The notes under the pieces were generated by a model. It had not been told where the DNA came from and made no database searches. It saw nothing but the letters and a program-made list of their open reading frames with translations. From the NCBI GenBank assembly GCA_003228915.1, contig QIGL01000052.1, forward strand, positions 13,090 through 77,089: DNA of 64,000 nt, in the 5' to 3' direction. The DNA is from Acidiferrobacteraceae bacterium (GTDB taxonomy: Bacteria > Pseudomonadota > Gammaproteobacteria > Acidiferrobacterales > SZUA-150). A program made the translations under genes and the position numbers. Below, one piece after another: positions 3,655-61,224 of the stretch; the first letter of the stretch is position 1; each line of letters starts with the position of its first letter.

Positions 3655-3712
3655 ATTCGAACTAATTTTAATTATAAATAATTATAAAAATATTTTTCAG
3701 GAGAGACATTCA

Positions 3713-5179
3713 ATGTATGTAATAAAAAAAACAGCGTTAGCCCTGGCTTACGCGGTACTAATGGCAGGCGTGGTTGCGACTACGCAAGCGGCAAACTGGA
3801 CCATGCTGCAGGGGACTGAACCTGCAGGCACTGCGCCACGAATTAAGGTCTGGGGTTTCATTCAACCTGTCTACGAGAAAGACACCAGCAAAAAAAATAA
3901 ATATGTGGGCACACCTGGTAATAATTTCGAGATGGTTGCGCCCAAGCTTATTGGTCCGAATTTTGAAACACAAGAAGGCTTTAACATTCGACGGGCTCGT
4001 CTCGGTGCCAGAGGTGCCGGATTACCGCTGGACAGTAATGTAAATTATTTCTTTTTGGCAGAATTTGGTAATAACCTTTTAACGCACGACACTGGTGGAG
4101 TCGTTCGACTCACCGATGCCAGCATTACCCTAAACCATGTGCCAGGCGCGCGCGTACGCATGGGTGCGTTTAAGGTGCCTACCTTTGAAGAAGGTTACCA
4201 GGCCATTCATGTATTTGATTACATCAACTTCACTGAAGTGGCCCAACAAATGATGATGGAGCGCTTCCCGAATAAACAATGGACGCCTAACCGGAACAAT
4301 ACAACGGGTTTTGCCTATACAGACGGCGATAATGAAACGGCTTTCAACGGTTTTAATAAACCTGTCGGTGCTTTTCGTGACGTGGGTGTCCAGGTATTTG
4401 ATTCCTTCAAGTTTGGTAGCTGGGACACAACTTATGCCGCCATGTACGGCAATGGTAATGGTGTTAATTTAGGGGACAACGATAAAAATAAAGACGTCTA
4501 TCTTTACCTGTCAACCGAATGGATATTCGGCGGTAAAGGCCCGCGCCGCCAGGGCTGGAAGTTCTTTGTCTGGGGGCAGGATGGCAAGCGTACCTTGTAT
4601 AACCCGGATACCCCCAGGGCAGGTGGTCCTGGCACTGACAATGAGCCAGGTGGAAAACAGGAATACAGCCGTAAGCGTTATGGCATCGGTACTAAATTTA
4701 ACAACGGCCTGTTTCGTGTCACAACCGAATACTTGCAAGGTAAAGGCATGATTTTCCTGGGCCCGGATAACCCGACATTCACCATGACGGCACCGACTGG
4801 TGCCGGCGGTTGTGTTGCCGGCGACCCGAATAACGTATGCCCGTTATTAGCAGATGGCCGTAAAGGTGAATCGGCAGGTTATTATATCGACTTGGGCTGG
4901 TATATCCCGAGTACTGCGTGGGAGCTGGACGTGCGTTATGACTTCTATGATCGGTTGACCGATGCCGAGAAACTGGCAGGTCCTTGTGCTTTTAATTTTG
5001 AATTCAAGACCCTGACCGTTGGCACCAATTACCATTTAAAGAGCCGCATTACGGTAAACGCGGCAAAACGTGACTTTAAGTCCGTGGATTGTCCGGATGC
5101 GGGTCCTGGTGGCAATCCGAACAATAATCTGGAAGGCATCGATATGCGCTATAGCGTGCAGTTAACACATATTTTCTAA
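3713..5179 (+). CDS. Outer-membrane beta-barrel porin candidate
   Basis: Signal peptide ending TTQA/AN, alternating beta-strand-like sequence, C-terminal aromatic residue (LTHIF). Confidence 0.7.
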   Translation: MYVIKKTALALAYAVLMAGVVATTQAANWTMLQGTEPAGTAPRIKVWGFIQPVYEKDTSKKNKYVGTPGNNFEMVAPKLIGPNFETQEGFNIRRARLGARGAGLPLDSNVNYFFLAEFGNNLLTHDTGGVVRLTDASITLNHVPGARVRMGAFKVPTFEEGYQAIHVFDYINFTEVAQQMMMERFPNKQWTPNRNNTTGFAYTDGDNETAFNGFNKPVGAFRDVGVQVFDSFKFGSWDTTYAAMYGNGNGVNLGDNDKNKDVYLYLSTEWIFGGKGPRRQGWKFFVWGQDGKRTLYNPDTPRAGGPGTDNEPGGKQEYSRKRYGIGTKFNNGLFRVTTEYLQGKGMIFLGPDNPTFTMTAPTGAGGCVAGDPNNVCPLLADGRKGESAGYYIDLGWYIPSTAWELDVRYDFYDRLTDAEKLAGPCAFNFEFKTLTVGTNYHLKSRITVNAAKRDFKSVDCPDAGPGGNPNNNLEGIDMRYSVQLTHIF

Positions 5180-50900: not shown

Positions 50901-52913
50901 GTGGCAAATATTAGTATATCAAAAGACAGTCCCGCCCCAGGCCGGCCTAAAACGACAATCGAGAGAAGGCCTGCAAGTGCCGAAGGTCAAGGGTTTAGCC
51001 AGAAGCTCGCCAGTTTTAGTATTTGGCGAGAAAAGTTTGTATCAGCGATCGAGGCCTACCAGCATTGGGTAGAACAGAATGAGCCGGTTGAAGGTGAAAA
51101 TGACCTGCGAATTTACGAGTTGATTGAGTCACTAAAATCGGACAAATTAAAAATTGCTTTCATGGGAGAGCTCTCCCGTGGGAAAACTGAGTTACTCAAC
51201 GCACTCTTTTTTTCCGATTACAAGAAACGTCTCTTGCCCTCATCAGCTGGACGGACAACCATGTGTCCGACAGAGCTTCGTTACGACGTTAAAACCGGAG
51301 CTTGTATAAAACTGTTGCCTATCGAAACGCGCAAAACAGGAACTACTATAGCTGAGTACAAGCAGAATCCGGTGCAGTGGACAACGCTACATCTGCTTAA
51401 GCGGGATTCTGCCAAAGAACTCGAGGCGGCTTTTTTAGAAGTTACAAAGACTAAAAGAGTGCACACCCGGGAAGCCGAAGAGCTTGGCTTGTATGACCCA
51501 AGTAACGAGATTGCAAACAGGGGTATTTCGATTGTCGATGATATGATTGAGATACCTTGTTGGCGCCATGCAATTATTAATTACCCCCACCCCTTGCTGG
51601 AAAATGGCCTGGTGATACTGGACACGCCAGGACTCAATTCCCTTGGGTCTGAACCAGAACTCACATTAAGCATGCTGCCAGAGGCCCATGCCGTAGTATT
51701 TGTTTTGGCAGCCGATACGGGCGTCACAGTAAGCGACATGGAGATATGGAATAATCATGTCAGCTGCACTAAAAAAGAACAACTTCGTGAGCGCCTGGTT
51801 GTCCTCAATAAAATTGATGCCATGTGGGATCCATTACGCACAGAATCTGAAGTAAATAAATTAATAAACAAGCAAGTTGAAAGTACGGCATTATCATTAA
51901 AAGAAAACAGAAAAATAATTATGCCTGTATCGGCCAAGGCAGGCCTGACTGCAAAAATAAATGACGACAGCGAATTGCTTGCGAAAAGCGGGATAAATGA
52001 TCTTGAACTATGCCTGGCCAGGAAAATTTTACCCGCTAAATACGAGATAATACGTCGCAAAGTAGTTTATGAAGTTAGTGGCAGGGTAGAGAAAAGCCAG
52101 CAATTATTAAAAGCGAAGTATAACGGCGTAGATAACCAGCTTAAAAAATTAAAAGAACTTGGCGGAAAAAACCTTGATGAAATACAGGAGATGGTCTCTA
52201 TTATGCGCCGGGAGAAGAAGAAATATGAAATGGAAATCAAGGGGTTTGAAATTACAAGGAAAGTATTAACGAAACAGGCAACAGTTTTATTTAATGATCT
52301 GAATTTAAAGGCGCTTGATCAATTAATTCGTTTGACACGAAAGAATATGAGAGAAAGCTGGACAACGGCTGGCTTAAAGAAGGCCATAAGACTATTTTTT
52401 AAAACTGCCATGCACCCGATGGGTAATGTTAAAAAGAAGTCTGAAGATATTAAAAAATCTGTAGATGAGATTTGCCATAAAATGCACAAGGAATATGGGC
52501 TCCCCCTGATCCGGGTTTCTGCCTTGTCATTGGTACCTTATGTGATGGATCTGAAAAAACTGGAAGGCAGGGCTGAGGTTTTCAGGAATAGTGCGGCAAT
52601 TATTGTTACCGAGCAAAATACTGTAATCAGTAAATTTTTTGTAGTTATGGTTTCAGAAGCGAGAAAAATATTTGACGAATGCAGCCAACATGCCCAGGGA
52701 TGGTTCCAGGAGCTGGCCAGCCAGGTACATAACCAGTTAAGAGTGCATAAAAATATAATAGACAAAGGGCTGGAATCAATACGCGCAATTCATGAAGACA
52801 TCGATACTATTGGCCAGCAAATTTCCAGTCTTGAGCAGGAGAAGGCCAACATAGCGGCACAACTTGGGATAGTTAACGGACTACTTAAAAAAATTCAAAA
52901 ACCAATAGAATGA
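50901..52913 (+). CDS. Bacterial dynamin-like GTPase
   Basis: G1 GELSRGKT, G3 ILDTPGLNS, G4 VLNKID, then a long helical stalk. GTG start. 670 aa. Confidence 0.8.
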   Translation: MANISISKDSPAPGRPKTTIERRPASAEGQGFSQKLASFSIWREKFVSAIEAYQHWVEQNEPVEGENDLRIYELIESLKSDKLKIAFMGELSRGKTELLNALFFSDYKKRLLPSSAGRTTMCPTELRYDVKTGACIKLLPIETRKTGTTIAEYKQNPVQWTTLHLLKRDSAKELEAAFLEVTKTKRVHTREAEELGLYDPSNEIANRGISIVDDMIEIPCWRHAIINYPHPLLENGLVILDTPGLNSLGSEPELTLSMLPEAHAVVFVLAADTGVTVSDMEIWNNHVSCTKKEQLRERLVVLNKIDAMWDPLRTESEVNKLINKQVESTALSLKENRKIIMPVSAKAGLTAKINDDSELLAKSGINDLELCLARKILPAKYEIIRRKVVYEVSGRVEKSQQLLKAKYNGVDNQLKKLKELGGKNLDEIQEMVSIMRREKKKYEMEIKGFEITRKVLTKQATVLFNDLNLKALDQLIRLTRKNMRESWTTAGLKKAIRLFFKTAMHPMGNVKKKSEDIKKSVDEICHKMHKEYGLPLIRVSALSLVPYVMDLKKLEGRAEVFRNSAAIIVTEQNTVISKFFVVMVSEARKIFDECSQHAQGWFQELASQVHNQLRVHKNIIDKGLESIRAIHEDIDTIGQQISSLEQEKANIAAQLGIVNGLLKKIQKPIE

Positions 52914-52916
52914 TAT

Positions 52917-54041
52917 TCAGGATACAGCCCTGTCGCCTAAAATATCTCCTGTGGTCCAGCGTGCAATGTAAGCAGGAATATCGCTAATTGAAAGTATCTT
53001 ATTGACAGCACCGAGTTTGTTCGCCTGGTCTGGCATACCATATATCACGCTACTTTTTTTATCCTGGGCGATTGTATAGGAGCCATTCCTGTACATGGAG
53101 AGCATCCCCTTGGCACCATCTTTGCCCATACCGGTAAGGATAATACCCAATATGTCCGGCCCATGGTAACGACTGACAGATTCAAATAAAATATCGACCG
53201 CTGGTTTGTGTTGATTAACCAGTTTGCCATCGAAGACATCGGCAATAAATTCATTGCGGGAATTCTGCGAGATTGCTAAATGGTAAGCGCCATTGGCTAT
53301 CAGCATTGTTCCAGATGTCAGCATATCCCCGTCTCTCGCTTCCCTGATATCGAGGGCTGATAATTGATTGATTCTCTGGGCATACATATCGGTAAAACGA
53401 GGCGGCATATGCTGGACGACAGCAATGCCTGGACTATCTACGGGCAACGCCTCGGCTATTTCCTGGATTGCCTTTGTCCCGCCTGTAGATGCACCAATGA
53501 CAATAATCTTTTTGTTCCCGGATGTTGACGGTTTGATGGTTACTTTCCTGGAACCTGTGGTTGATCTCAGGTGGTCAAGCGACCCTCTATCGTTGTTATA
53601 ATCCTGTTTATCTATTAGCCTGACACTGGATCGTATTTTTGCATTGGCAGCAGCTTCCAGTTTGTTGCAAAGGTCTGTGATAAATGGATCCAACGATCCA
53701 CTAGCATCCATTTTTGGCTTGGTAATAAAATCTATCGCGCCCAGCTCAAGTGCCTGGAAAGTTTCACGCGCGCCTTTTTCCGTATGTGATGAGACCATGA
53801 CAACCGGCATTGGCCTTACTTCCATTAATTCTTTGAGAAAAGTCAGGCCATCCATACGTGGCATTTCTACGTCCAGGGTCAGGACATCAGGATTAACCCG
53901 GGGTATTTTATTTTTTGCAAGTATAGGATCAGATGAAACGCCAACAACTTCAAATCTTGAATCTTCAGTGATTATAGATTTAAGTAGTTCACGCATGACA
54001 GCAGAGTCATCGATAATCAGGACTTTAATTATATTAGCCAA
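52917..54041 (-). CDS. cheB: Chemotaxis response regulator protein-glutamate methylesterase
   Basis: REC domain (VLIIDDSAVMRELL, DVEMPRMDG) plus methylesterase domain (GASTGG, ILTGMGKDG). Confidence 0.92.
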   Translation of the reverse strand: MANIIKVLIIDDSAVMRELLKSIITEDSRFEVVGVSSDPILAKNKIPRVNPDVLTLDVEMPRMDGLTFLKELMEVRPMPVVMVSSHTEKGARETFQALELGAIDFITKPKMDASGSLDPFITDLCNKLEAAANAKIRSSVRLIDKQDYNNDRGSLDHLRSTTGSRKVTIKPSTSGNKKIIVIGASTGGTKAIQEIAEALPVDSPGIAVVQHMPPRFTDMYAQRINQLSALDIREARDGDMLTSGTMLIANGAYHLAISQNSRNEFIADVFDGKLVNQHKPAVDILFESVSRYHGPDILGIILTGMGKDGAKGMLSMYRNGSYTIAQDKKSSVIYGMPDQANKLGAVNKILSISDIPAYIARWTTGDILGDRAVS

Positions 54042-54065
54042 AAAAATCTCACCAGTTTGTTATAG

Positions 54066-54671
54066 CTAGAAGAGGGTAGGTACCCCATCCAGCTCATCTG
54101 TTCGAAGCCTGGAAAGGAATACTTTTTCTTCAGTTATTGTTTTAGTTGCTTCATTTAGGCCAAGACGTTTTAAATATACTTTTCCAGTGAGCGGGATGAA
54201 CAGTACGCGTTTTGGGTGATTGCCACCAAGGTCACTGGTAACAACTTTTATATTCTCGGTAGCCAGGAACTTGCCAACAAAATTAATATTCATACTTGGT
54301 ACGCTATTATTTGAATCAGGAACATTCAGGACATGACCACCACCGAATACTTTTACAATAAAACGAGATCGCACACCGCCAATTTTTATGAGATTATTTA
54401 TTAATAATTCCATGGCGTGCACGCCGTAACGCGTACTCAGCGGATTATTTAAATCCGCTGCCTTCGGCAGCATAAAATGATTCATGCCACCAACATTACA
54501 TTCTGGATCATACATACATACGGAAATACATGAACCAAGGACAGTATCAAAAACAACCGGGTCTTTGCTGACTTTTACGCTACCAATATTGATACGTTCC
54601 AGGGGAAGTCCTTCCACCTCTCTGGGCAGGCGACGGTATTTCGATGAAGTTGAACTTGTATTCGTTAACAT
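54066..54671 (-). CDS. cheD: Chemoreceptor glutamine deamidase CheD
   Basis: LGSCISVCMYD...GGMNHFMLP motif. 201 aa. Confidence 0.9.
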   Translation of the reverse strand: MLTNTSSTSSKYRRLPREVEGLPLERINIGSVKVSKDPVVFDTVLGSCISVCMYDPECNVGGMNHFMLPKAADLNNPLSTRYGVHAMELLINNLIKIGGVRSRFIVKVFGGGHVLNVPDSNNSVPSMNINFVGKFLATENIKVVTSDLGGNHPKRVLFIPLTGKVYLKRLGLNEATKTITEEKVFLSRLRTDELDGVPTLF

Positions 54672-54677
54672 AAGGAA

Positions 54678-55556
54678 TCAGGCATTCCTGTTTATCTGGT
54701 AAATATTTTTTCCGAGGTTTATCAGGCTTGTATCCAAACCGTGCAATGACTCCGAATGACCAAGCATAAGATAACCATCTAACTCCATATGACCCTGAAA
54801 ACGACTGATTAGATCATGTTGCGTTATTTTATCAAAATATATGATGACATTACGACAAAAAATAATATCAAATTTGTGTTTATGCGGCCATTGAGAATCA
54901 AGCAGGTTCATTTGTTGAAACGTAATGATGTCTCTTAATTTGTCCGCAGCCCTGAAAAAGCCATTATTTCCGCCTCTTCCTTTATGAAAATATTTGAGCA
55001 ATAGTGTTTTTGGAATTTGTGCGGCGTTCTCGATTGGGTAAATGCCTTCAGAAGCTTTTTTAAGGACATTGGTGTCTATATCTGTCGCAAGGATCTTTAC
55101 ATTCCATCCAAAATTATCCGGAAAGGCCTCTGAGAGCGCCATCGCAATCGTATAGGCCTCTTCACCGGTTGAGCAACCGGCACTCCAGATATTTATCGTC
55201 CTGGTGTGATGGCTTTGTGCATTCTCCTTTAAGGCAGGAAACAACGTCTCACTCAAAAACTTAAAATGAAAATCTTCACGAAAAAAACTGGTCTTGTTGG
55301 TTGTTATTGCGTTTATCATTTCAACCAGCTCTGTGCCGGAAGAATCTTTATTCAGGATATAATTGTAATAATCAAGATAAGTTTTCAGGCCGTGATATCG
55401 CAACCTTTTACCAAGACGAGAATATACGAGCGCCCGTTTATGTTCAGAAAGAGAGATTCCTGTATGTTCATATATCAATTCTCTGAATAATCTAAACTCC
55501 TTGTCAGTTAGATTGTCCGCATGATTAATTAATGGTGATTGTAAATTAACAGTCAT
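54678..55556 (-). CDS. cheR: Chemotaxis protein methyltransferase CheR
   Basis: N-terminal helical domain, FFRE, SAM-binding IWSAGCSTGEEAYTIAM. Confidence 0.92.
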   Translation of the reverse strand: MTVNLQSPLINHADNLTDKEFRLFRELIYEHTGISLSEHKRALVYSRLGKRLRYHGLKTYLDYYNYILNKDSSGTELVEMINAITTNKTSFFREDFHFKFLSETLFPALKENAQSHHTRTINIWSAGCSTGEEAYTIAMALSEAFPDNFGWNVKILATDIDTNVLKKASEGIYPIENAAQIPKTLLLKYFHKGRGGNNGFFRAADKLRDIITFQQMNLLDSQWPHKHKFDIIFCRNVIIYFDKITQHDLISRFQGHMELDGYLMLGHSESLHGLDTSLINLGKNIYQINRNA

Positions 55557-55609
55557 ACCTTAATGGCCCATGCTAAATAAATTAACTGTTAAATGTAATA
55601 TTAATACGA

Positions 55610-56131
55610 CTAATTGTCTTCCAGGTCCGCATCTGGAGCCAAATCAGAACTCATGTCAGCCAGATCGTCAACGTCAGCAAGCTTGCTAATATCCAGTAAT
55701 ATGAGTAGTTTTTCATCAAACTGGACCAACCCATCTATAAATTGCCGGTTTAGCTGTCCTTCAAACTCAGGTGCTTCACAGTGTTGTTCATTTGATGCGT
55801 TAACAACATCGCTAACTGAATCAACAACCAGGCCTGCAAGTTTTCCAGAAATGTTCACTACTATGATTACTGTAAATTGGTCGTATTCCTTTCTCTCCAG
55901 GTTGAAGCGTAGCCGTAAATCGATAATTGGGACTATAGTGCCGCGCAGGTTTAGCACGCCTTTAATAAAATGGGGAGAATTAGGTATTGGCGTGACAGCA
56001 GTCCATCCTTTTATCTCCTGAACTTCGAGAATAGGTATACCATAATCCTGATCGCTTAATCTGAATGTCAGGTACTGTTGCTCGAGGTTATCAAGATCCT
56101 CTTTAATGTCTGCCAGATTCGTGTTATCCAT
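55610..56131 (-). CDS. cheW: Chemotaxis coupling protein CheW
   Basis: 173 aa. YLTFRLSDQDYGIPILEVQEI...NLRGTIVPIIDLR. Confidence 0.92.
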   Translation of the reverse strand: MDNTNLADIKEDLDNLEQQYLTFRLSDQDYGIPILEVQEIKGWTAVTPIPNSPHFIKGVLNLRGTIVPIIDLRLRFNLERKEYDQFTVIIVVNISGKLAGLVVDSVSDVVNASNEQHCEAPEFEGQLNRQFIDGLVQFDEKLLILLDISKLADVDDLADMSSDLAPDADLEDN

Positions 56132-56174
56132 TGCTGTGCTCCAAAATAACCAATGTACTTAAGTTAATAAAACA

Positions 56175-58217
56175 TCAGGACGCTGCTTTAAGCATGTGGT
56201 CTTGATAGTGTTTGTGACTTACCAGGTTAGTGAGGGTGGATATATCCAGTATTAATGCCACTTCACCGTCGCCAAGGATGGTTGCTGTGGCCACCCCTTC
56301 AACACGTTTGTAATGTGTTTCAAGGCTTTTGACAACCACTTGTTGTTGACCGACAATTTCATCAACTAACAGGCCAATCTTTTTATTTTCAGATTCTACG
56401 ATAATAATAATCCCGTCAGTAGTGGTTTTGATAGCCGAGCTTAAGTTAAATAATTTGTAGAGTTTCAGGAATGGCAAGTATTCACTATGAAAGGGAACCA
56501 GCTCTGAGCCACCAGCTGGCCTGCTAATTTCATGCTCCGGGACAGACAAGGATTCTATTACAGACAAGAGGGGGATGATGTAAACCTGGGAACCAACCTT
56601 GACGCAAAGTCCATCCATGATTGCGAGGGTGAGCGGCAGGCGTAGTGTTAATTTTGTTCCACTCCCGGGATTATTAGTCACTTCAACATGACCACCCAGC
56701 TCACTAATACGTGTTCTGACCACATCCATGCCCACACCTCTGCCGGATACGCCAGTCACCTGGGAGGCCGTGGAAAAACCAGGTATAAATATAAGATTAT
56801 CAATTTGCTCGTCAGTTAAATCTGCATCATCCCTGACCAGGCCTTTCTCAATTGCCTTATTTAAAATTAGGTTACGGTTCAGGCCATTGCCGTCGTCTTC
56901 TATGGTGATCACAACGCTGCCACCTTTTTGCGAAGCTTGCACGTGAATCGCGCCTGTTTCTGGCTTACCGGCATTTATCCTTTCGGCAGGTGATTCAAGG
57001 CCGTGATCAACTGAATTACGAACAATATGCATGAGTGCATCGCCGATGCTTTCAATAACGCTTTTATCGAGCTCGGTGCCTTCCCCGCTTATATCAAGTT
57101 TTACTTTTTTGCCAAGCTTCGTGCTGACATCGCGAACGATCCTTGGTAATTTATTCAGGGCGAAGCCTACTGGCAACATTCGAATTCTCATGACACTTTC
57201 TTGTAATTCTCGCGTATTCCTTTCCAGCAGACCAAGACCAAGTTGTAGTTTTTCAATTGATTCAGATGTTATCTCTTCCGAAAATTGGCTAAGCATTGTC
57301 TGGGTTATCACCAATTCACCCACCAGGTCGACCAGGGCATCAACTTTCGGCGTGCTCACCCTGATTGATTGCACTTCGAGCCCGTTACCTGAAACGCCAG
57401 GGGCAGGAGCGTTGGTGCCGGTACCTGAGTCAATGGCATGTTCCGGCCTGGAAGCGGATGGGTTATGCACGCTATTATTTCGTTTAATATCTAAAACGCA
57501 GTCATCAGCCACCCATGAAAATACGTTTTCTATCAGACTCTTTTCTACGGGCCCTAATAAATCAATATTCCAGGATAAATAAATATACTCGGGATTTATT
57601 TTGTTCCAGCTTGGCAGGGAATTTATATCCAGTTGCGACTTGATATTACCAAGATTTTTCAGCGCGCGTATAATACGAACTGGATCATTACCAGTAGATA
57701 ACATATTCTTGTTTGGAGTAAATAAAATATCCCAGTTACCTATATTATTTTTATCAATCCCCCTGGTTTTACGCCTTCTGTCTGGTGTAACTTCGCAGCC
57801 AGTTTCTTGTAAGTTCTCCAGGTTAACTTGAAACTTATCTATGTCGGCGGGCAGTGTATTAATTCCATTTTGTGAATTCTGGACTAAAGTTCTCAGGCAA
57901 TCGCAAGAATGTAATAGTGTGCTAATCAGGTTACGTGTAGTTTTACAGCGATGTTCCCGGATATCGTCGAGGAGGTTTTCAAGCACATGACTGAAGTTGG
58001 CAACAATTTCAAAACCAAATGTACTGCTTCCTCCCTTTATAGAATGTACCGCACGAAATATAATGTTTAGAGATTCATTATCTGCTTTAAATTCGTCAGA
58101 AACCCTTCGTCCAGACATGTGGCCGTCAATACGAAGCAGTTCCGCTTCCATATCAGACAATGCTTCCAGGCTTTCTTCAAAAAATGTCTGATGAAATTGT
58201 GTGAGATCAATAGTCAT
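56175..58217 (-). CDS. cheA: Chemotaxis histidine kinase CheA
   Basis: HPt motif AVHSIKGGSSTFGF, HATPase region (HIVRNSVDHG, DDGNGL, GRGVGMDVV), C-terminal CheW-like domain. Confidence 0.95.
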   Translation of the reverse strand: MTIDLTQFHQTFFEESLEALSDMEAELLRIDGHMSGRRVSDEFKADNESLNIIFRAVHSIKGGSSTFGFEIVANFSHVLENLLDDIREHRCKTTRNLISTLLHSCDCLRTLVQNSQNGINTLPADIDKFQVNLENLQETGCEVTPDRRRKTRGIDKNNIGNWDILFTPNKNMLSTGNDPVRIIRALKNLGNIKSQLDINSLPSWNKINPEYIYLSWNIDLLGPVEKSLIENVFSWVADDCVLDIKRNNSVHNPSASRPEHAIDSGTGTNAPAPGVSGNGLEVQSIRVSTPKVDALVDLVGELVITQTMLSQFSEEITSESIEKLQLGLGLLERNTRELQESVMRIRMLPVGFALNKLPRIVRDVSTKLGKKVKLDISGEGTELDKSVIESIGDALMHIVRNSVDHGLESPAERINAGKPETGAIHVQASQKGGSVVITIEDDGNGLNRNLILNKAIEKGLVRDDADLTDEQIDNLIFIPGFSTASQVTGVSGRGVGMDVVRTRISELGGHVEVTNNPGSGTKLTLRLPLTLAIMDGLCVKVGSQVYIIPLLSVIESLSVPEHEISRPAGGSELVPFHSEYLPFLKLYKLFNLSSAIKTTTDGIIIIVESENKKIGLLVDEIVGQQQVVVKSLETHYKRVEGVATATILGDGEVALILDISTLTNLVSHKHYQDHMLKAAS

Positions 58218-58221
58218 ATAA

Positions 58222-58584
58222 TTAATTTAAAACATTTTTAATGACGTTTAATAGTTGCTCAGGATTAAATGGTTTTACGATCCAGCCTGTCGCACCCGCT
58301 TCCTTGCATTCCTTTCTTTTTGAATCCTGTGACTCCGTCGTTAACATTAGGATGGGCGTGAATTTATAGTCTGCTAATGATCGCAATTCGCGTACGAGAG
58401 AAATGCCATCCATATTAGGCATATTGATATCTGTGATCACTGCATCAAATTTTGATTTGCGAGCCGCTTCAAGCGCCTCATTGCCATCAGCCGCTTCAGT
58501 TACCTCATAACTGGCATCATTAAGTGTAAAACCAATCATTTGTCTCATTGAGGCAGTGTCATCTACTATAAGAATTGTTGCCAT
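58222..58584 (-). CDS. cheY: CheY-like single-domain response regulator
   Basis: 120 aa. ILIVDD, DINMPNMDG and the conserved K (VKPF). Confidence 0.9.
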   Translation of the reverse strand: MATILIVDDTASMRQMIGFTLNDASYEVTEAADGNEALEAARKSKFDAVITDINMPNMDGISLVRELRSLADYKFTPILMLTTESQDSKRKECKEAGATGWIVKPFNPEQLLNVIKNVLN

Positions 58585-58595
58585 TTATTTCTCCT

Positions 58596-59939
58596 TTAAA
58601 ATAATTCTACGTTCGGTCCGCTATTGGGAAGTGCATTTTCCTTGCCGGTTGTGTTGTTACTACTTCTTGGCAGAGGTTTTCCGTTTGTAGCAGATTTTGT
58701 TTGCTGATCTTGTGCCGCCAGTTCGCTATCCCAATTGCTTGCAAGCCCAAGACTGTTGGTTTCATTTGTGAGTAAATCGATTGCAGAAGCAAGGTTGTCC
58801 ATAGGGGTAGTAATACTATTTAGCTTCTGGGAGATGATGTCGTGAAATTGAAGTGAAATAACCACGTTTTGTACGTCCTGGGCAATTTCTTTGCTGATGG
58901 TGTTGATGTCGCTTACCGTATCGGCAACCTCACGGTTTTTATCTTCCAGTGTTTTTGTAAGTGTCCTGATTTCATTCTTGATATTGTTTGCATGAGCCAT
59001 ATCTTTCGATGTCAGTGTTTGCATATTGCTGTAGGTGGCGTTGAGTCCATTTTTTACCATCCTGAGATGATTGCGAATTTCATGGCTAAAAACATTGGAG
59101 CGTTTGCTAAGTCGCCTGACTTCCTGGGCGACAATACCAAAACCACGTCCGGCATCGCCGGCACGGGATGCTTCGATATCAGCATTTAATGCCAACAGGC
59201 TTGTTTGATCAGCGAGCTTGCCAACATCAAGCAAAAACCCATCGATAGCTTGTGTCCGGTCTTTCACATCATCCAGATCCCTGACCATCTTTACGGACAA
59301 GTCGGCTACGCGCATTACCTCATCTGCCATTTTGTTCAGGCGCTCATCTGAAACTCGTATAAAATCCTGGAGTGATTGGGGCGAGCCATCACTGGTAGCG
59401 CCTTGTGTGCCTTCGAGCAGATTCATGGCCTGGCTAGCTTGTAACGTAGCTTTATTGATAACAGTTTTAAAGCTACTGGCGATTGTATCTGTCGCATCTT
59501 CACTCTGTTTTATTACTTCGTTTATCTGTCCATCCAGGTGGTGTTTAACAGCATTAAATTGTTTGGCAAGTTCTGCCCATTTTCTAACAAGTCCATCAAT
59601 GCGCCGTCTTTCACTTGCTCCGGCCATAGTCGTTAGCATGTCATCAATTTTTGGTAGCTGGTCAATCTCACCTTTGGCGGGTTCAATTGCAGATCTTAAT
59701 TGCTCATCAATGGCATCAATTGGCGATGTTTTTTCATCAAGCGAAACATCCTGATATTCATCAAAATCATCATGTTTCCTGACATAGTCCAGGATTAAAA
59801 CCATGGCAATTGCCGTGCTGAGTCCGCTACTAATTGCCACCCAAATCGAAACAAAGGAGACGGTTAAAAGCCACGAGCTTGCAATGAACAGTGTAGTCAA
59901 GACCCAAAATATTTTATTTTTTGATGTTTTTGTGTTCAC
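58596..59939 (-). CDS. Methyl-accepting chemotaxis protein without a periplasmic sensor domain
   Basis: Two adjacent N-terminal TM helices. Signalling hairpin LALNADIEASRAGDAGRGFGIVAQEVRRLS. C-terminus ...GPNVELF. Confidence 0.9.
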   Translation of the reverse strand: MNTKTSKNKIFWVLTTLFIASSWLLTVSFVSIWVAISSGLSTAIAMVLILDYVRKHDDFDEYQDVSLDEKTSPIDAIDEQLRSAIEPAKGEIDQLPKIDDMLTTMAGASERRRIDGLVRKWAELAKQFNAVKHHLDGQINEVIKQSEDATDTIASSFKTVINKATLQASQAMNLLEGTQGATSDGSPQSLQDFIRVSDERLNKMADEVMRVADLSVKMVRDLDDVKDRTQAIDGFLLDVGKLADQTSLLALNADIEASRAGDAGRGFGIVAQEVRRLSKRSNVFSHEIRNHLRMVKNGLNATYSNMQTLTSKDMAHANNIKNEIRTLTKTLEDKNREVADTVSDINTISKEIAQDVQNVVISLQFHDIISQKLNSITTPMDNLASAIDLLTNETNSLGLASNWDSELAAQDQQTKSATNGKPLPRSSNNTTGKENALPNSGPNVELF

Positions 59940-59960
59940 TATAATCCCTGAGAGTTGTCG

Positions 59961-60272
59961 TTAAGCGCCATGCAGACCAAGCGCATCCTTCATACCGGTA
60001 TATTCAATGCATTCACGAAATTCTTTACTGGTTTCAGCCCAGCTGACAGTTTTTTTCAGGCGTATTGCTTCTTGAGTACAAGCAATAAGCAATTGCAAAA
60101 CAGAAGTATCGAAGCGAGTTAGTTTTTTAGCATAAAAAATGATTTTGTCCGGTTTTCGTGCCAGCGCCTTGCCCAGATCGGCATACAGCTCATTAGCATT
60201 GCTCACGTCCAGGCTTTCTCCCAGATCAACCACAGTCGCACCATTTTTATGCTGAATTTTTACTAATGCCAT
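59961..60272 (-). CDS. STAS-domain protein (anti-sigma-antagonist fold), first gene of the che operon
   Basis: 103 aa. STAS-like length and pattern. Position at the head of the che cluster. Confidence 0.65.
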   Translation of the reverse strand: MALVKIQHKNGATVVDLGESLDVSNANELYADLGKALARKPDKIIFYAKKLTRFDTSVLQLLIACTQEAIRLKKTVSWAETSKEFRECIEYTGMKDALGLHGA

Positions 60273-60648
60273 GATCTTAATGTCTGCCTAATAACTTGAA
60301 TATAAACAGCAAGTTACGAGTAAAATTTGGGTGAAAAAATCTCGGTGAGTAGACGAGGTTTTAGCGAACCTGACTTAAACATAGCAATAATTACGCAATT
60401 GTCACGGTGTCGTCAGTGATAAAAATAGTTATTAAAAACAACAGAATAAGACTAAAAAAAGACGCTATATGTCATTTCAGAAGAATGGCCTGATTATGAC
60501 AAACCTAATTTGACGAATACCATGATATGGATTGACAACAGGATTTGTCTGGACTATTTAATTTAATGTGAGTGCAAGTAGAATTGCCAGCAAAGAGACT
60601 AAATTATTGATCCTGGATTGTTGATCCCGGCTTTCCTGAAGGAAAAAA

Positions 60649-61224
60649 ATGAAACCATCTACCGTTATTACCCCCAAGTCTACATCCAGCGAGCCTGATC
60701 TTGACTGGAGCCAGGTCAGGGAGACCATCCTGATGTTAAATTTAGCGACTGCGCGCATTGAATACTGTATGCGTGATGGTGACGACTCGGTGAATACCCT
60801 TACTAATTCATTTACCAATATGGCAGGCCACGTGGCCGCCATCAAAAGCGCGCTCGAACAAGTTTGGGAAAATTCTGATGTCGATGAAGTTTTAAAAGAT
60901 GGTGTGTTGGGTAACTGCAACGAAATCAGTACAAAAATGCACAGTGTTATTGTGGCATTTCAGTTTTATGATAAGCTGGTACAGCGCCTGGCCCATATAA
61001 GTCGCAGCATGTCTGCTTTGGCTTCTCTTGTCTCAGATCCGTCTCGTTTGTATTCACCTTATGAATGGAAAGGACTGCAAGAAAAAATACGCTCCCAGTA
61101 CTCATTGTCAGACGAAGTAAAAATGTTTGATGCCGTTCTAGAGGGGGCAAGTATTGAAGAGGTAGTGAAATTGATGGAAGAACAGGATAGGTCCCGCAAA
61201 GATAGTGATGTCGAACTTTTCTAG
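60649..61224 (+). CDS. Soluble mini-receptor-like protein: paralog of the MCP flanking helices, lacking the signalling tip
   Basis: 191 aa. DSVNTLTNSFTNMAGHV resembles MCP DATDTIASSFKTVINKA. VIVAFQFYDKLVQRLAHI resembles MCP VVISLQFHDIISQKLNSI. Ends DSDVELF. Confidence 0.6.
   Translation: MKPSTVITPKSTSSEPDLDWSQVRETILMLNLATARIEYCMRDGDDSVNTLTNSFTNMAGHVAAIKSALEQVWENSDVDEVLKDGVLGNCNEISTKMHSVIVAFQFYDKLVQRLAHISRSMSALASLVSDPSRLYSPYEWKGLQEKIRSQYSLSDEVKMFDAVLEGASIEEVVKLMEEQDRSRKDSDVELF

Follow-up and report, generated by a model that had tools for sequence, protein, structure and literature searches.

A 64,000-nucleotide stretch of an Acidiferrobacteraceae genome (contig QIGL01000052.1, positions 13,090 to 77,089; hereafter the window) carries a chemotaxis operon whose second gene encodes a methyl-accepting chemotaxis protein (MCP) and, divergent from this operon, a gene for a 191-amino acid (aa) protein, referred to below as the mini protein. 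Judged by its sequence, the mini protein is a soluble, tip-less derivative of an McpA-type receptor, encoded across the divergent promoter. It looks like the proximal module of the receptor joined to the receptor's C-terminal tail.

Homology between the Mini Protein and the Receptor

The initial annotation had matched the mini protein by eye to two separated parts of the MCP. Translation gave the coordinates and sequences of both proteins as reported there, and the similarity was borne out by formal comparison. BLASTP aligned mini residues 92–128 with MCP residues 351–387 (13/37 identical, E 1e-5), that is, with block 2 only (Table 1); block 1 (mini 36–75, MCP 138–177) was detected neither by BLASTP nor by HHalign on the full-length MCP. 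The full-length profiles, representing the alignments of 42 mini-family sequences (A1) and 32 MCP-family sequences (A3), gave an HHalign probability of 27.6% (E 6.5e-4), with the N-terminal helix of the mini protein placed on the C-arm of the receptor. The 160-residue deletion caused this misplacement, an artefact that split and tip-deleted profiles removed. When the mini profile was split, the N-terminal half found its best MCP match at residues 138–177 (P 0.02), the C-terminal half matched MCP residues 345–385 (P 0.0016) and the tails of the two proteins matched as well (P 0.046), all three matches being collinear.

The tip-deleted construct, an MCP-family profile without residues 179–339, was aligned by HHalign to the mini-family profile and gave one alignment over both blocks with a probability of 90.6% (score 45.5, E 1.3e-6). 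In global mode mini residues 19–191 spanned the whole construct (E 2.2e-7), and five choices of the deletion junction all gave probabilities of 56–91%. The controls were clean: the C-arm alone scored 28.6, so that the rise to 45.5 came with the addition of block 1, six other 54-aa N-arm registers scored 28.4–29.5, and 20 column shuffles of the true N-arm segment scored 28.2–34.5. Conserved columns coincide in the two families at A149/S47, T152/T50, I153/L51 and S156-F157/S54-F55 (MCP/mini). The centre of the receptor tip, D262 in R-A-G-D262-A-G-R-G-F, lies 105 residues from both F157 in block 1 and D367 in block 2, and the two blocks are therefore at the same level of the hairpin, facing each other.

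That the mini protein lacks the kinase-control hairpin, as proposed in the initial annotation, was confirmed: Pfam searches at E up to 10 gave no MCPsignal match and no tip motif, the receptor tip motif E-A-x-R-A-G-E-x-G-R-G-F-x-V-V-A-x-E-V-R is not in the mini protein, and the alignment skips MCP residues 179–339. An antiparallel hairpin like that of the receptor cytoplasmic bundle is present in the AlphaFold2 (AF2) model of the mini protein, and both of its arms match the corresponding McpA arms.

Anatomy of the Two Proteins

The AF2 receptor model, of moderate quality (mean predicted local distance difference test, pLDDT, 63.6), has helices at residues 110–176 and 190–396 with a break at 177–189. 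The break falls in a glycine/proline (G/P)-rich joint whose consensus across the receptor family is L-L-E-G-T-Q-G-A-T-S-D-G-x-P-Q-S, with L174–G180, P187 and S189 as invariant columns in A3. In the global HHalign alignment this helix-breaking joint lines up with the turn of the mini hairpin, so that the receptor looks bipartite, made of a proximal module and a distal signalling hairpin. The kinase-control tip lies within the MCPsignal match (residues 217–362), and the block 2 motif, S-L-Q-F-[HQ]-D-I-T-S-Q-K-L, is found in all 120 receptor homologues. The receptor has two transmembrane (TM) helices and no periplasmic domain, and its heptad class could not be assigned; a conserved joint splitting the bundle in two modules may account for the resistance of McpA-like receptors to heptad classification.

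The AF2 model of the mini protein (pLDDT 82.8) consists of a helical hairpin (residues 20–75 and 80–129, with the turn at 76–79) followed by short helices and a disordered tail. In block 2 the invariant columns of A1 are A103–D108, Q112 and H116. Two further conserved regions are peculiar to the mini protein. The N-terminal motif at residues 16–26, in which P16, D17, L18, W20, Q22, E25 and T26 are invariant, is without equivalent in the MCP, and the receptor also lacks a region conserved in the mini family as L-Y-x-P-x-E-W-x-G-L-Q. The N-terminal motif includes the string D-W-S-Q-V, with tryptophan at "position 2" of a pentapeptide-like sequence.

The mini protein gave no match in Pfam or NCBIfam, and for 42 family members Pfam at E up to 10 returned only spurious helical families, MCPsignal and CheZ not being among the 25 listed. 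The family profile found coiled-coil noise only among PDB sequences (best E 0.009, to a designed protein), and the AF2 model, compared with the PDB by Foldseek, matched nothing at E 0.001 or better, the weaker matches being generic helical hairpins only. There are 2170 homologues at E 0.001 or better, all of about 180–200 aa, and those with source names are all called "hypothetical" except for one labelled as a vWA-domain protein. Relatives turned up in at least 572 species when one genome per species was scanned; carriers include the Gamma- and Betaproteobacteria Ectothiorhodospira, Zoogloea, Azonexus, Thiobacillus, Competibacter and Methylophaga, and Desulfobacterales. No description of the family was found in the literature, the F7 cluster descriptions consulted included, and the family, which is unannotated and large (over 2000 sequences, from at least 572 species), is apparently new.

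Table 1. Coordinates in the window of the mini protein gene, the chemotaxis operon and the segments discussed.
Feature	Position	Strand	Basis or remark
Mini protein gene	60649..61224	+	191 aa, soluble, all-helical; open reading frame (ORF)
Mini N-terminal motif PDLDWSQVRET (residues 16–26)	60694..60726	+	family-invariant, alignment A1
Mini block 1 (residues 36–75)	60754..60873	+	homologous to MCP N-arm proximal helix; HHalign
Mini hairpin turn (residues 76–85)	60874..60903	+	stands where the MCP has its ~165-aa distal signalling hairpin
Mini block 2 (residues 86–126), invariant A-F-Q-F-Y-D-x3-Q-x3-H	60904..61026	+	BLASTP, HHalign, A1
Mini C-terminal docking-type tail DVELF (protein ends DSDVELF)	61207..61221	+	conserved in homologues
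STAS (anti-sigma-factor antagonist) gene, operon gene 1	59961..60272	−	STAS_2 3.2e-9
McpA-like chemoreceptor (MCP) gene	58596..59939	−	447 aa; MCPsignal 1.1e-26
MCP block 1 (residues 138–177), end of proximal N-arm helix	59409..59528	−	HHalign
MCP G/P-rich joint LLEGTQGATSDGSPQSL (residues 174–190), interrupts N-arm helix	59370..59420	−	invariant, A3
MCP kinase-control tip IEASRAGDAGRGFGIVAQEVRRLS (residues 255–278), absent from mini protein	59106..59177	−	translation
MCP block 2 (residues 345–385) with S-L-Q-F-H-D-I-I-S-Q-K-L	58785..58907	−	BLASTP, HHalign
MCP tail NVELF (protein ends GPNVELF)	58599..58613	−	conserved in homologues
cheY, cheA, cheW, cheR, cheD, cheB of F7-type operon	52917..58584	−	Pfam, ORF map
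CheD C-terminal tail VPTLF (ends DGVPTLF), degenerate motif copy after ~25-aa extension	54069..54083	−	ORF translation

The C-Terminal Tail and Its Occurrence on CheD

The tail shared by the two proteins is conserved in both families: [DE]-[IV]-E-[LMF]-F ends 120 of the 120 best mini homologues, and G-P-x-V-E-L-F ends 119 of 120 MCP homologues. A lack of conservation in orthologues, which the initial annotation had named as grounds for refutation, was thus not observed. The tail had been treated as new in the initial annotation; it is in fact the published C-terminal motif of McpA-like receptors, of which PA0180, VCA1088 and SO_2117 end in DIELF, EVELF, EIELF or DLELF (Ortega et al. 2020, PMC7184735, Suppl. 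Table 12). The McpA C-terminus was described as strikingly conserved, with a role "important yet unclear" (Ortega et al. 2020, PMC7184735). The pentapeptide rule x-[HFYW]-x2-[HFYW] asks for aromatic residues at positions 2 and 5; position 2 is V or I in 119 of 120 mini homologues and in all 119 F-terminal McpA homologues. The Aer2-like receptors of related loci, which end in EWAEF, DWEEF or DWTEF, satisfy the rule.

A related tail is present on CheD. In loci resembling stage 1 of F7 evolution CheD ends in EGEIELF, EGDIELF, EGSVELF or ETEIELF, and in loci of the window type in DGKSTLF, DGDVTFF or DGVPTLF, with DGDVTLF found elsewhere; C-termini of this type were noted in L001, L002, L013, L047, L074, L082, L084 and P0361–P0510. 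The window CheD was searched against 1.84 billion representative proteins, and the best 150 of 6795 matches were analysed. Among these 150, an exact [VI]-[TE]-L-F end was found in 79 and the motif lay within the last eight residues in 116; 41 were of at least 300 aa, and 37 of these 41 keep the tail, the long forms tested being CheR-CheD fusions. The CheD of Thermotoga maritima, which is regulated by CheC, has 159 aa and no C-terminal extension. Searches of the literature turned up no relevant paper on the tail strings or on CheR-CheD fusions, and the occurrence of the tail on CheD, including CheR-CheD fusions, is apparently new. Departures from consensus occur in both the mini tail (DVEFF, DIEFF) and the CheD tail (DVDIFS, DVDMFQ) of loci L027 and L054, a weak hint of co-variation between the mini protein and CheD.

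The Locus and Its Relatives

The operon on the minus strand (52917–60272) has the order STAS-MCP-CheY-CheA-CheW-CheR-CheD-CheB (Pfam, ORF map), and 376 bp separate its STAS gene from the mini gene; a promoter and terminator scan of this divergent intergenic region gave nothing informative. The ORF map showed no other MCP gene in the window, no RsbU-like gene near the operon, and no Aer2-like or xWxxF-ending receptor at the cheW-cheR junction (54678–56131, minus strand). The window CheR retains the beta-subdomain loop residues K187, G188, G190, G194 and R197 (E. coli numbering) typical of pentapeptide-binding CheRs, a comparison which shows that a pentapeptide-type loop is kept and cannot discriminate which peptide binds. 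A 670-aa dynamin-family GTPase gene (50901–52913, plus strand) is convergent to cheB, and its position is kept in the related loci L084 (17018–19063) and L085 (222–2234).

In stage 1 of F7 evolution the cluster holds STAS, cheY, cheA, two cheW, aer2, cheR, cheD, cheB, a gene resembling mcpA, STAS and a serine phosphatase gene, and in stage 2 the front position has been taken by the mcpA block (Ortega et al. 2020, PMC7184735). The window operon, with cheY, cheA, cheW, cheR, cheD and cheB beside an anti-sigma-factor antagonist, fits the ancestral F7 description, and the receptor fits the McpA-like C-terminus, [DE/x]-[IVL]-[ED]-L-F without an aromatic residue at position 2. The window MCP is the McpA-like receptor of an ancestral F7 chemosensory cluster. 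Receptors of this type join the F6 array in Pseudomonas aeruginosa, Vibrio cholerae and Shewanella oneidensis (Ortega et al. 2020, PMC7184735), a membership supported for S. oneidensis by further work (PMC9855816).

The survey of orthologous clusters proposed in the initial annotation recovered the mini gene beside or inside some F7 operons and, in most of the loci surveyed, away from che genes. The STAS gene stands at the same operon position in L082, L084, L085 and L087. In L084 and L085 the window arrangement is kept, with the mini gene divergent from STAS-mcpA-cheYAWRDB and the dynamin-like gene after cheB, and in L087, from a metagenome-assembled genome of the Acidiferrobacterales, a two-gene unit of cheW (168 aa) and the mini gene (3670–4808, plus strand) is divergent from a STAS-mcpA-cheY-cheA operon. 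In L082 (Sulfuricaulis) the operon has no mini gene, and a HAMP-MCP ending in GGDWTEF lies between cheW and cheR. Among 80 more distant loci, eight have the mini gene inside an F7-type operon, in the order mini(tail)-cheR-cheD(tail)-cheB-mcpA(tail), preceded by cheY-cheA-cheW-(Aer2-like or NIT-HAMP receptors ending xWxxF)-cheW-parA-like-STAS and followed by STAS-STAS-(REC-SpoIIE-HATPase).

A ParA/MinD-type ATPase gene and then a STAS gene stand between the second cheW and the mini gene in L002 (8718–9473), L013, L047 and L074; this pair may be an array-positioning module. The STAS-domain proteins encoded just upstream of the mini gene in L054 (9045–9953, plus strand) and L027 (5897–6619, plus strand) contain five or six copies of an acidic [DE]-G-F-G-F-F repeat and have GSSGFF at the C-terminus. 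Since the repeats fit x-[HFYW]-x2-[HFYW], these STAS-domain proteins may be multivalent docking scaffolds.

Proposed Role of the Mini Protein and Alternatives

In the reading that we favour, and to which we give about even credence, the mini protein is an off-array docking partner of, or competitor for, the protein that reads the tail, a tip-less offshoot that has kept the proximal module and the tail. It retains the part of the N-arm helix that precedes the G/P-rich joint, the Q-F-x-D-x3-Q segment of the C-arm and the x-[IV]-E-L-F peptide. Without the ~165-residue distal hairpin that binds CheA and CheW it would be unable to enter the kinase array, and yet it would still offer the adaptation proteins a receptor-like bundle surface and a tether; from this combination it is probably a cytoplasmic competitor, buffer or adaptor for the tail reader, and it would set the amount of reader available to McpA and CheD. 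The tail itself may be a second docking peptide of ancestral F7-type, CheD-containing systems, carried by the McpA-type receptor, the mini protein and CheD, with the Aer2-like receptors of the same clusters carrying the classical xWxxF tether. As candidate readers CheB or CheR would rank first, the F7 CheY second and the STAS partner-switch proteins third. The first rank follows from the gene order, in which the tail-bearers mini, CheD and McpA alternate with CheR and CheB along the operons, from the tether-like format of the tail, from the reported influence of CheD on methylation (receptor methylation in P. aeruginosa is enhanced by CheD, according to the summary in PMC10107281) and from the retained beta-subdomain loop of CheR. 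A decoy or competitor role is, we infer, the best fit to these data.

Several points weigh against this role. In 72 of the 80 more distant loci the mini gene is surrounded by housekeeping genes and che genes are absent within 10 kb, so that linkage to F7 is not general; a conserved-neighbour analysis found no recurrent partner gene near these 72 orphan loci, whose neighbours are lineage-specific housekeeping genes. By inspection of A1 no E-E, Q-E or Q-Q pair was found in the mini blocks, and the residues aligned to McpA E147-[QD]148 are D45-D46; since neither block holds an obvious E-E or Q-E methylation site, the mini protein shows no clear sign of mimicking a substrate. The N-terminal motif and residues 130–170, which have no receptor counterpart, suggest functions beyond mimicry. 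The identity between mini protein and receptor is low (about 21% over 154 aligned columns), and weak scores are inflated by coiled-coil composition. According to Ortega et al. 2020 (PMC7184735), who cite Garcia-Fontana et al. 2014, the valine keeps the tail from binding any of the four P. aeruginosa CheRs, which counts against CheR specifically as the reader. In V. cholerae, Mlp44, the McpA homologue, is methylated by CheR3 in E. coli, and E-W/V-E-x-F has been suggested as a possible CheR3 site (2025 review, PMC11940527), so that binding of the tail by CheR is contested. Of the variant tether for CheR and CheB proposed in the initial annotation, the xWxxF format thus stands, V or I taking the place of W and L that of T, while its binding by CheR is disputed in the literature. 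In P. aeruginosa GWEEF is bound weakly by CheB2 (93 μM) and tightly by CheR2 (0.52 μM), GWEEF being the only peptide titrated and no McpA tail being included (PMC7698151); no published test of an McpA-type tail against CheB or CheY was found.

One alternative denies any real relationship and takes the similarity for a chance or convergent resemblance of coiled coils, and the tail for a convergent short motif. The full-length HHalign probability of only 27.6%, the generic helical hairpins that are all Foldseek yields and the low identity would agree with this, but the three matches are collinear with conserved columns coinciding in both families, a probability of 90.6% is obtained with the tip-deleted profile and no score above 34.5 with any of 26 controls, 239 of 240 homologues retain the tail and the gene linkage recurs in three arrangements; such a coincidence is very improbable. 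If the homology is accepted, the mini protein might heterodimerise with the McpA proximal module or pack on it, altering signalling or array incorporation. It is homologous to exactly this module, homologous helical modules often co-assemble, and in the window's clade its gene adjoins the mcpA operon in divergent orientation. Most family members, however, are unlinked to any mcpA, conservation of an interface is doubtful at ~21% identity, and both the retention of the tail and the CheD tail would be left unexplained, which makes a bundle partner quite unlikely. Little probability is likewise attached to a role in partner switching, in which the tail or module would be read by STAS and RsbU-like (receiver-PP2C-kinase) proteins and the mini protein would feed sigma-factor (RpoS-type) control and not adaptation. 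In the course of F7 evolution mcpA, STAS and the serine phosphatase gene have travelled together as one block (Ortega et al. 2020, PMC7184735), the window operon begins with its STAS gene, and the stage-1-like loci have a STAS gene directly upstream of the mini gene and STAS-STAS-(REC-SpoIIE-HATPase) after mcpA. Set against these arrangements are the missing RsbU-like gene near the window operon and the wide occurrence of the tail on the receptor-modifying enzyme CheD and on CheR-CheD fusions, which points to adaptation rather than partner switching.

A role in the removal of phosphorylated CheY (CheY-P) is suggested by the second long helix, on which an Asp and a Gln stand four residues apart (D108 and Q112, invariant in the mini family; compare D143 and Q147 of E. 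coli CheZ). The mini protein, perhaps together with the McpA proximal module, would then be a CheZ- or CheC-like phosphatase or binder of CheY-P for the F7 CheY, a protein for which no phosphatase is known, with the exposed D108 and Q112 acting like D143 and Q147 and the acidic L-F tail tethering CheY like the C-terminal peptide of CheZ. The mini family (A-F-Q-F-Y-D-K-L-x-Q) and the McpA-like receptors (L-Q-F-[HQ]-D-I-T-S-Q) share an invariant F-x-D-x3-Q pattern, which matches the E. coli CheZ active site D-F-Q-D-L-T-G-Q, on which the McpA motif falls exactly in HHalign. Pfam CheZ was the top or second family for five of five McpA C-arm fragments with FQDIT (sub-threshold, E 0.0014–0.013) and for none of four generic MCP controls, cheZ is absent from F7 stage 1 and stage 2 clusters, and the T. 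maritima CheD, lacking the tail extension, is the one regulated by CheC. On the other side, the Pfam scan of the mini protein at E up to 10 showed no CheZ match, CheZ was not one of the 25 families listed for the 42 members, and the PDB profile search did not return it either; HHalign probabilities against the CheZ profile, whose alignment is shallow (enterobacterial sequences only, at least 79% identity), were 0.45% for the mini protein and only 2.4% for McpA. CheZ matched none of six fragments with FHD (including the window MCP) or FED (stage-1 McpA), so that the matches depend on a 7-residue motif, and ordinary MCPs carry D-x3-Q at the same position (Tar M-D-R-V-T-Q-Q-N-A), which suggests that the motif may be an inherited receptor feature. 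A CheZ- or CheC-like function is accordingly judged unlikely, and CheZ homology of the mini protein, as distinct from a resemblance at the level of the motif, is not supported. The homologues with the FQDIT-type motif (L-Q-F-Q-D-I-T-[SR]-Q) and sub-threshold CheZ matches are P0136, P0162, P0177, P0197 and P0239; the counterpart in the window MCP, F-H-D-I-I-S-Q at 58827–58859 (minus strand), gave no CheZ match. A broader proposal, which we think rather unlikely, makes the tail, as x-[IV]-[ET]-L-F, a docking network parallel to that of xWxxF with CheR and CheB, joining McpA, CheD (CheR-CheD fusions included) and the mini protein to one reader, with the mini protein as the functional analogue of CheC or CheZ in systems that have neither. 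As a receptor-derived bundle it would capture CheD or CheY-P, possibly dephosphorylating CheY-P through D108/Q112, and would give feedback or cross-talk between the F7 and F6 pathways.

The shared tail bears on a published puzzle. The function of ancestral F7 systems (P. aeruginosa Che2, V. cholerae system III, S. oneidensis Che1) is unsolved, and the role of McpA in the array of another pathway is a stated open question (Ortega et al. 2020, PMC7184735); with a tail shared by the mini protein and CheD the puzzle becomes testable, as a search for one protein that reads x-[IV]-E-L-F. The chemotaxis parts list gains an unannotated family present in at least 572 species, and the findings suggest that more than one tether connects the adaptation enzymes with each other.

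Comparison with Known Systems

The window operon differs from P. aeruginosa Che2 and from L082 in having no xWxxF-bearing receptor between cheW and cheR. With the McpA-like receptors P. aeruginosa PA0180/McpA, V. cholerae VCA1088/Mlp44 and S. oneidensis SO_2117 the window MCP shares a place in an F7 cluster beside a STAS gene, a pair of TM helices with no periplasmic domain, an unassignable heptad class and an [x]-[IV]-E-L-F end. The mini protein resembles these receptors in its proximal module and tail and differs from them in having neither TM helices nor a signalling tip, in its own N-terminal motif and 130–170 region, and in being usually encoded apart from che genes.

The tail resembles the CheR/CheB-binding xWxxF tether (NWETF, GWEEF): both are five-residue C-termini attached through a flexible linker, acidic at position 3 and closed by F, and the tail occurs in the same clusters beside cheR and cheB. 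Unlike that tether it has V or I at position 2 and L at position 4, and it is borne by a soluble protein and by the enzyme CheD besides a receptor. CheZ (PF04344) is likewise a helical hairpin of ~200 aa; its second long helix bears F-x-D-x3-Q, and a variable linker leads to an acidic C-terminal peptide with F as its last residue. The mini tail has 5–6 residues and is not an amphipathic helix of ~15 residues, and there is no homology at the profile level. CheC is a CheY-P phosphatase that binds CheD by mimicking the receptor methylation helix (T. maritima, 2F9Z). Its fold and sequence are unrelated to those of the mini protein, and the likeness is one of concept only, a soluble receptor-like surface that could engage adaptation enzymes off the array in systems containing CheD.

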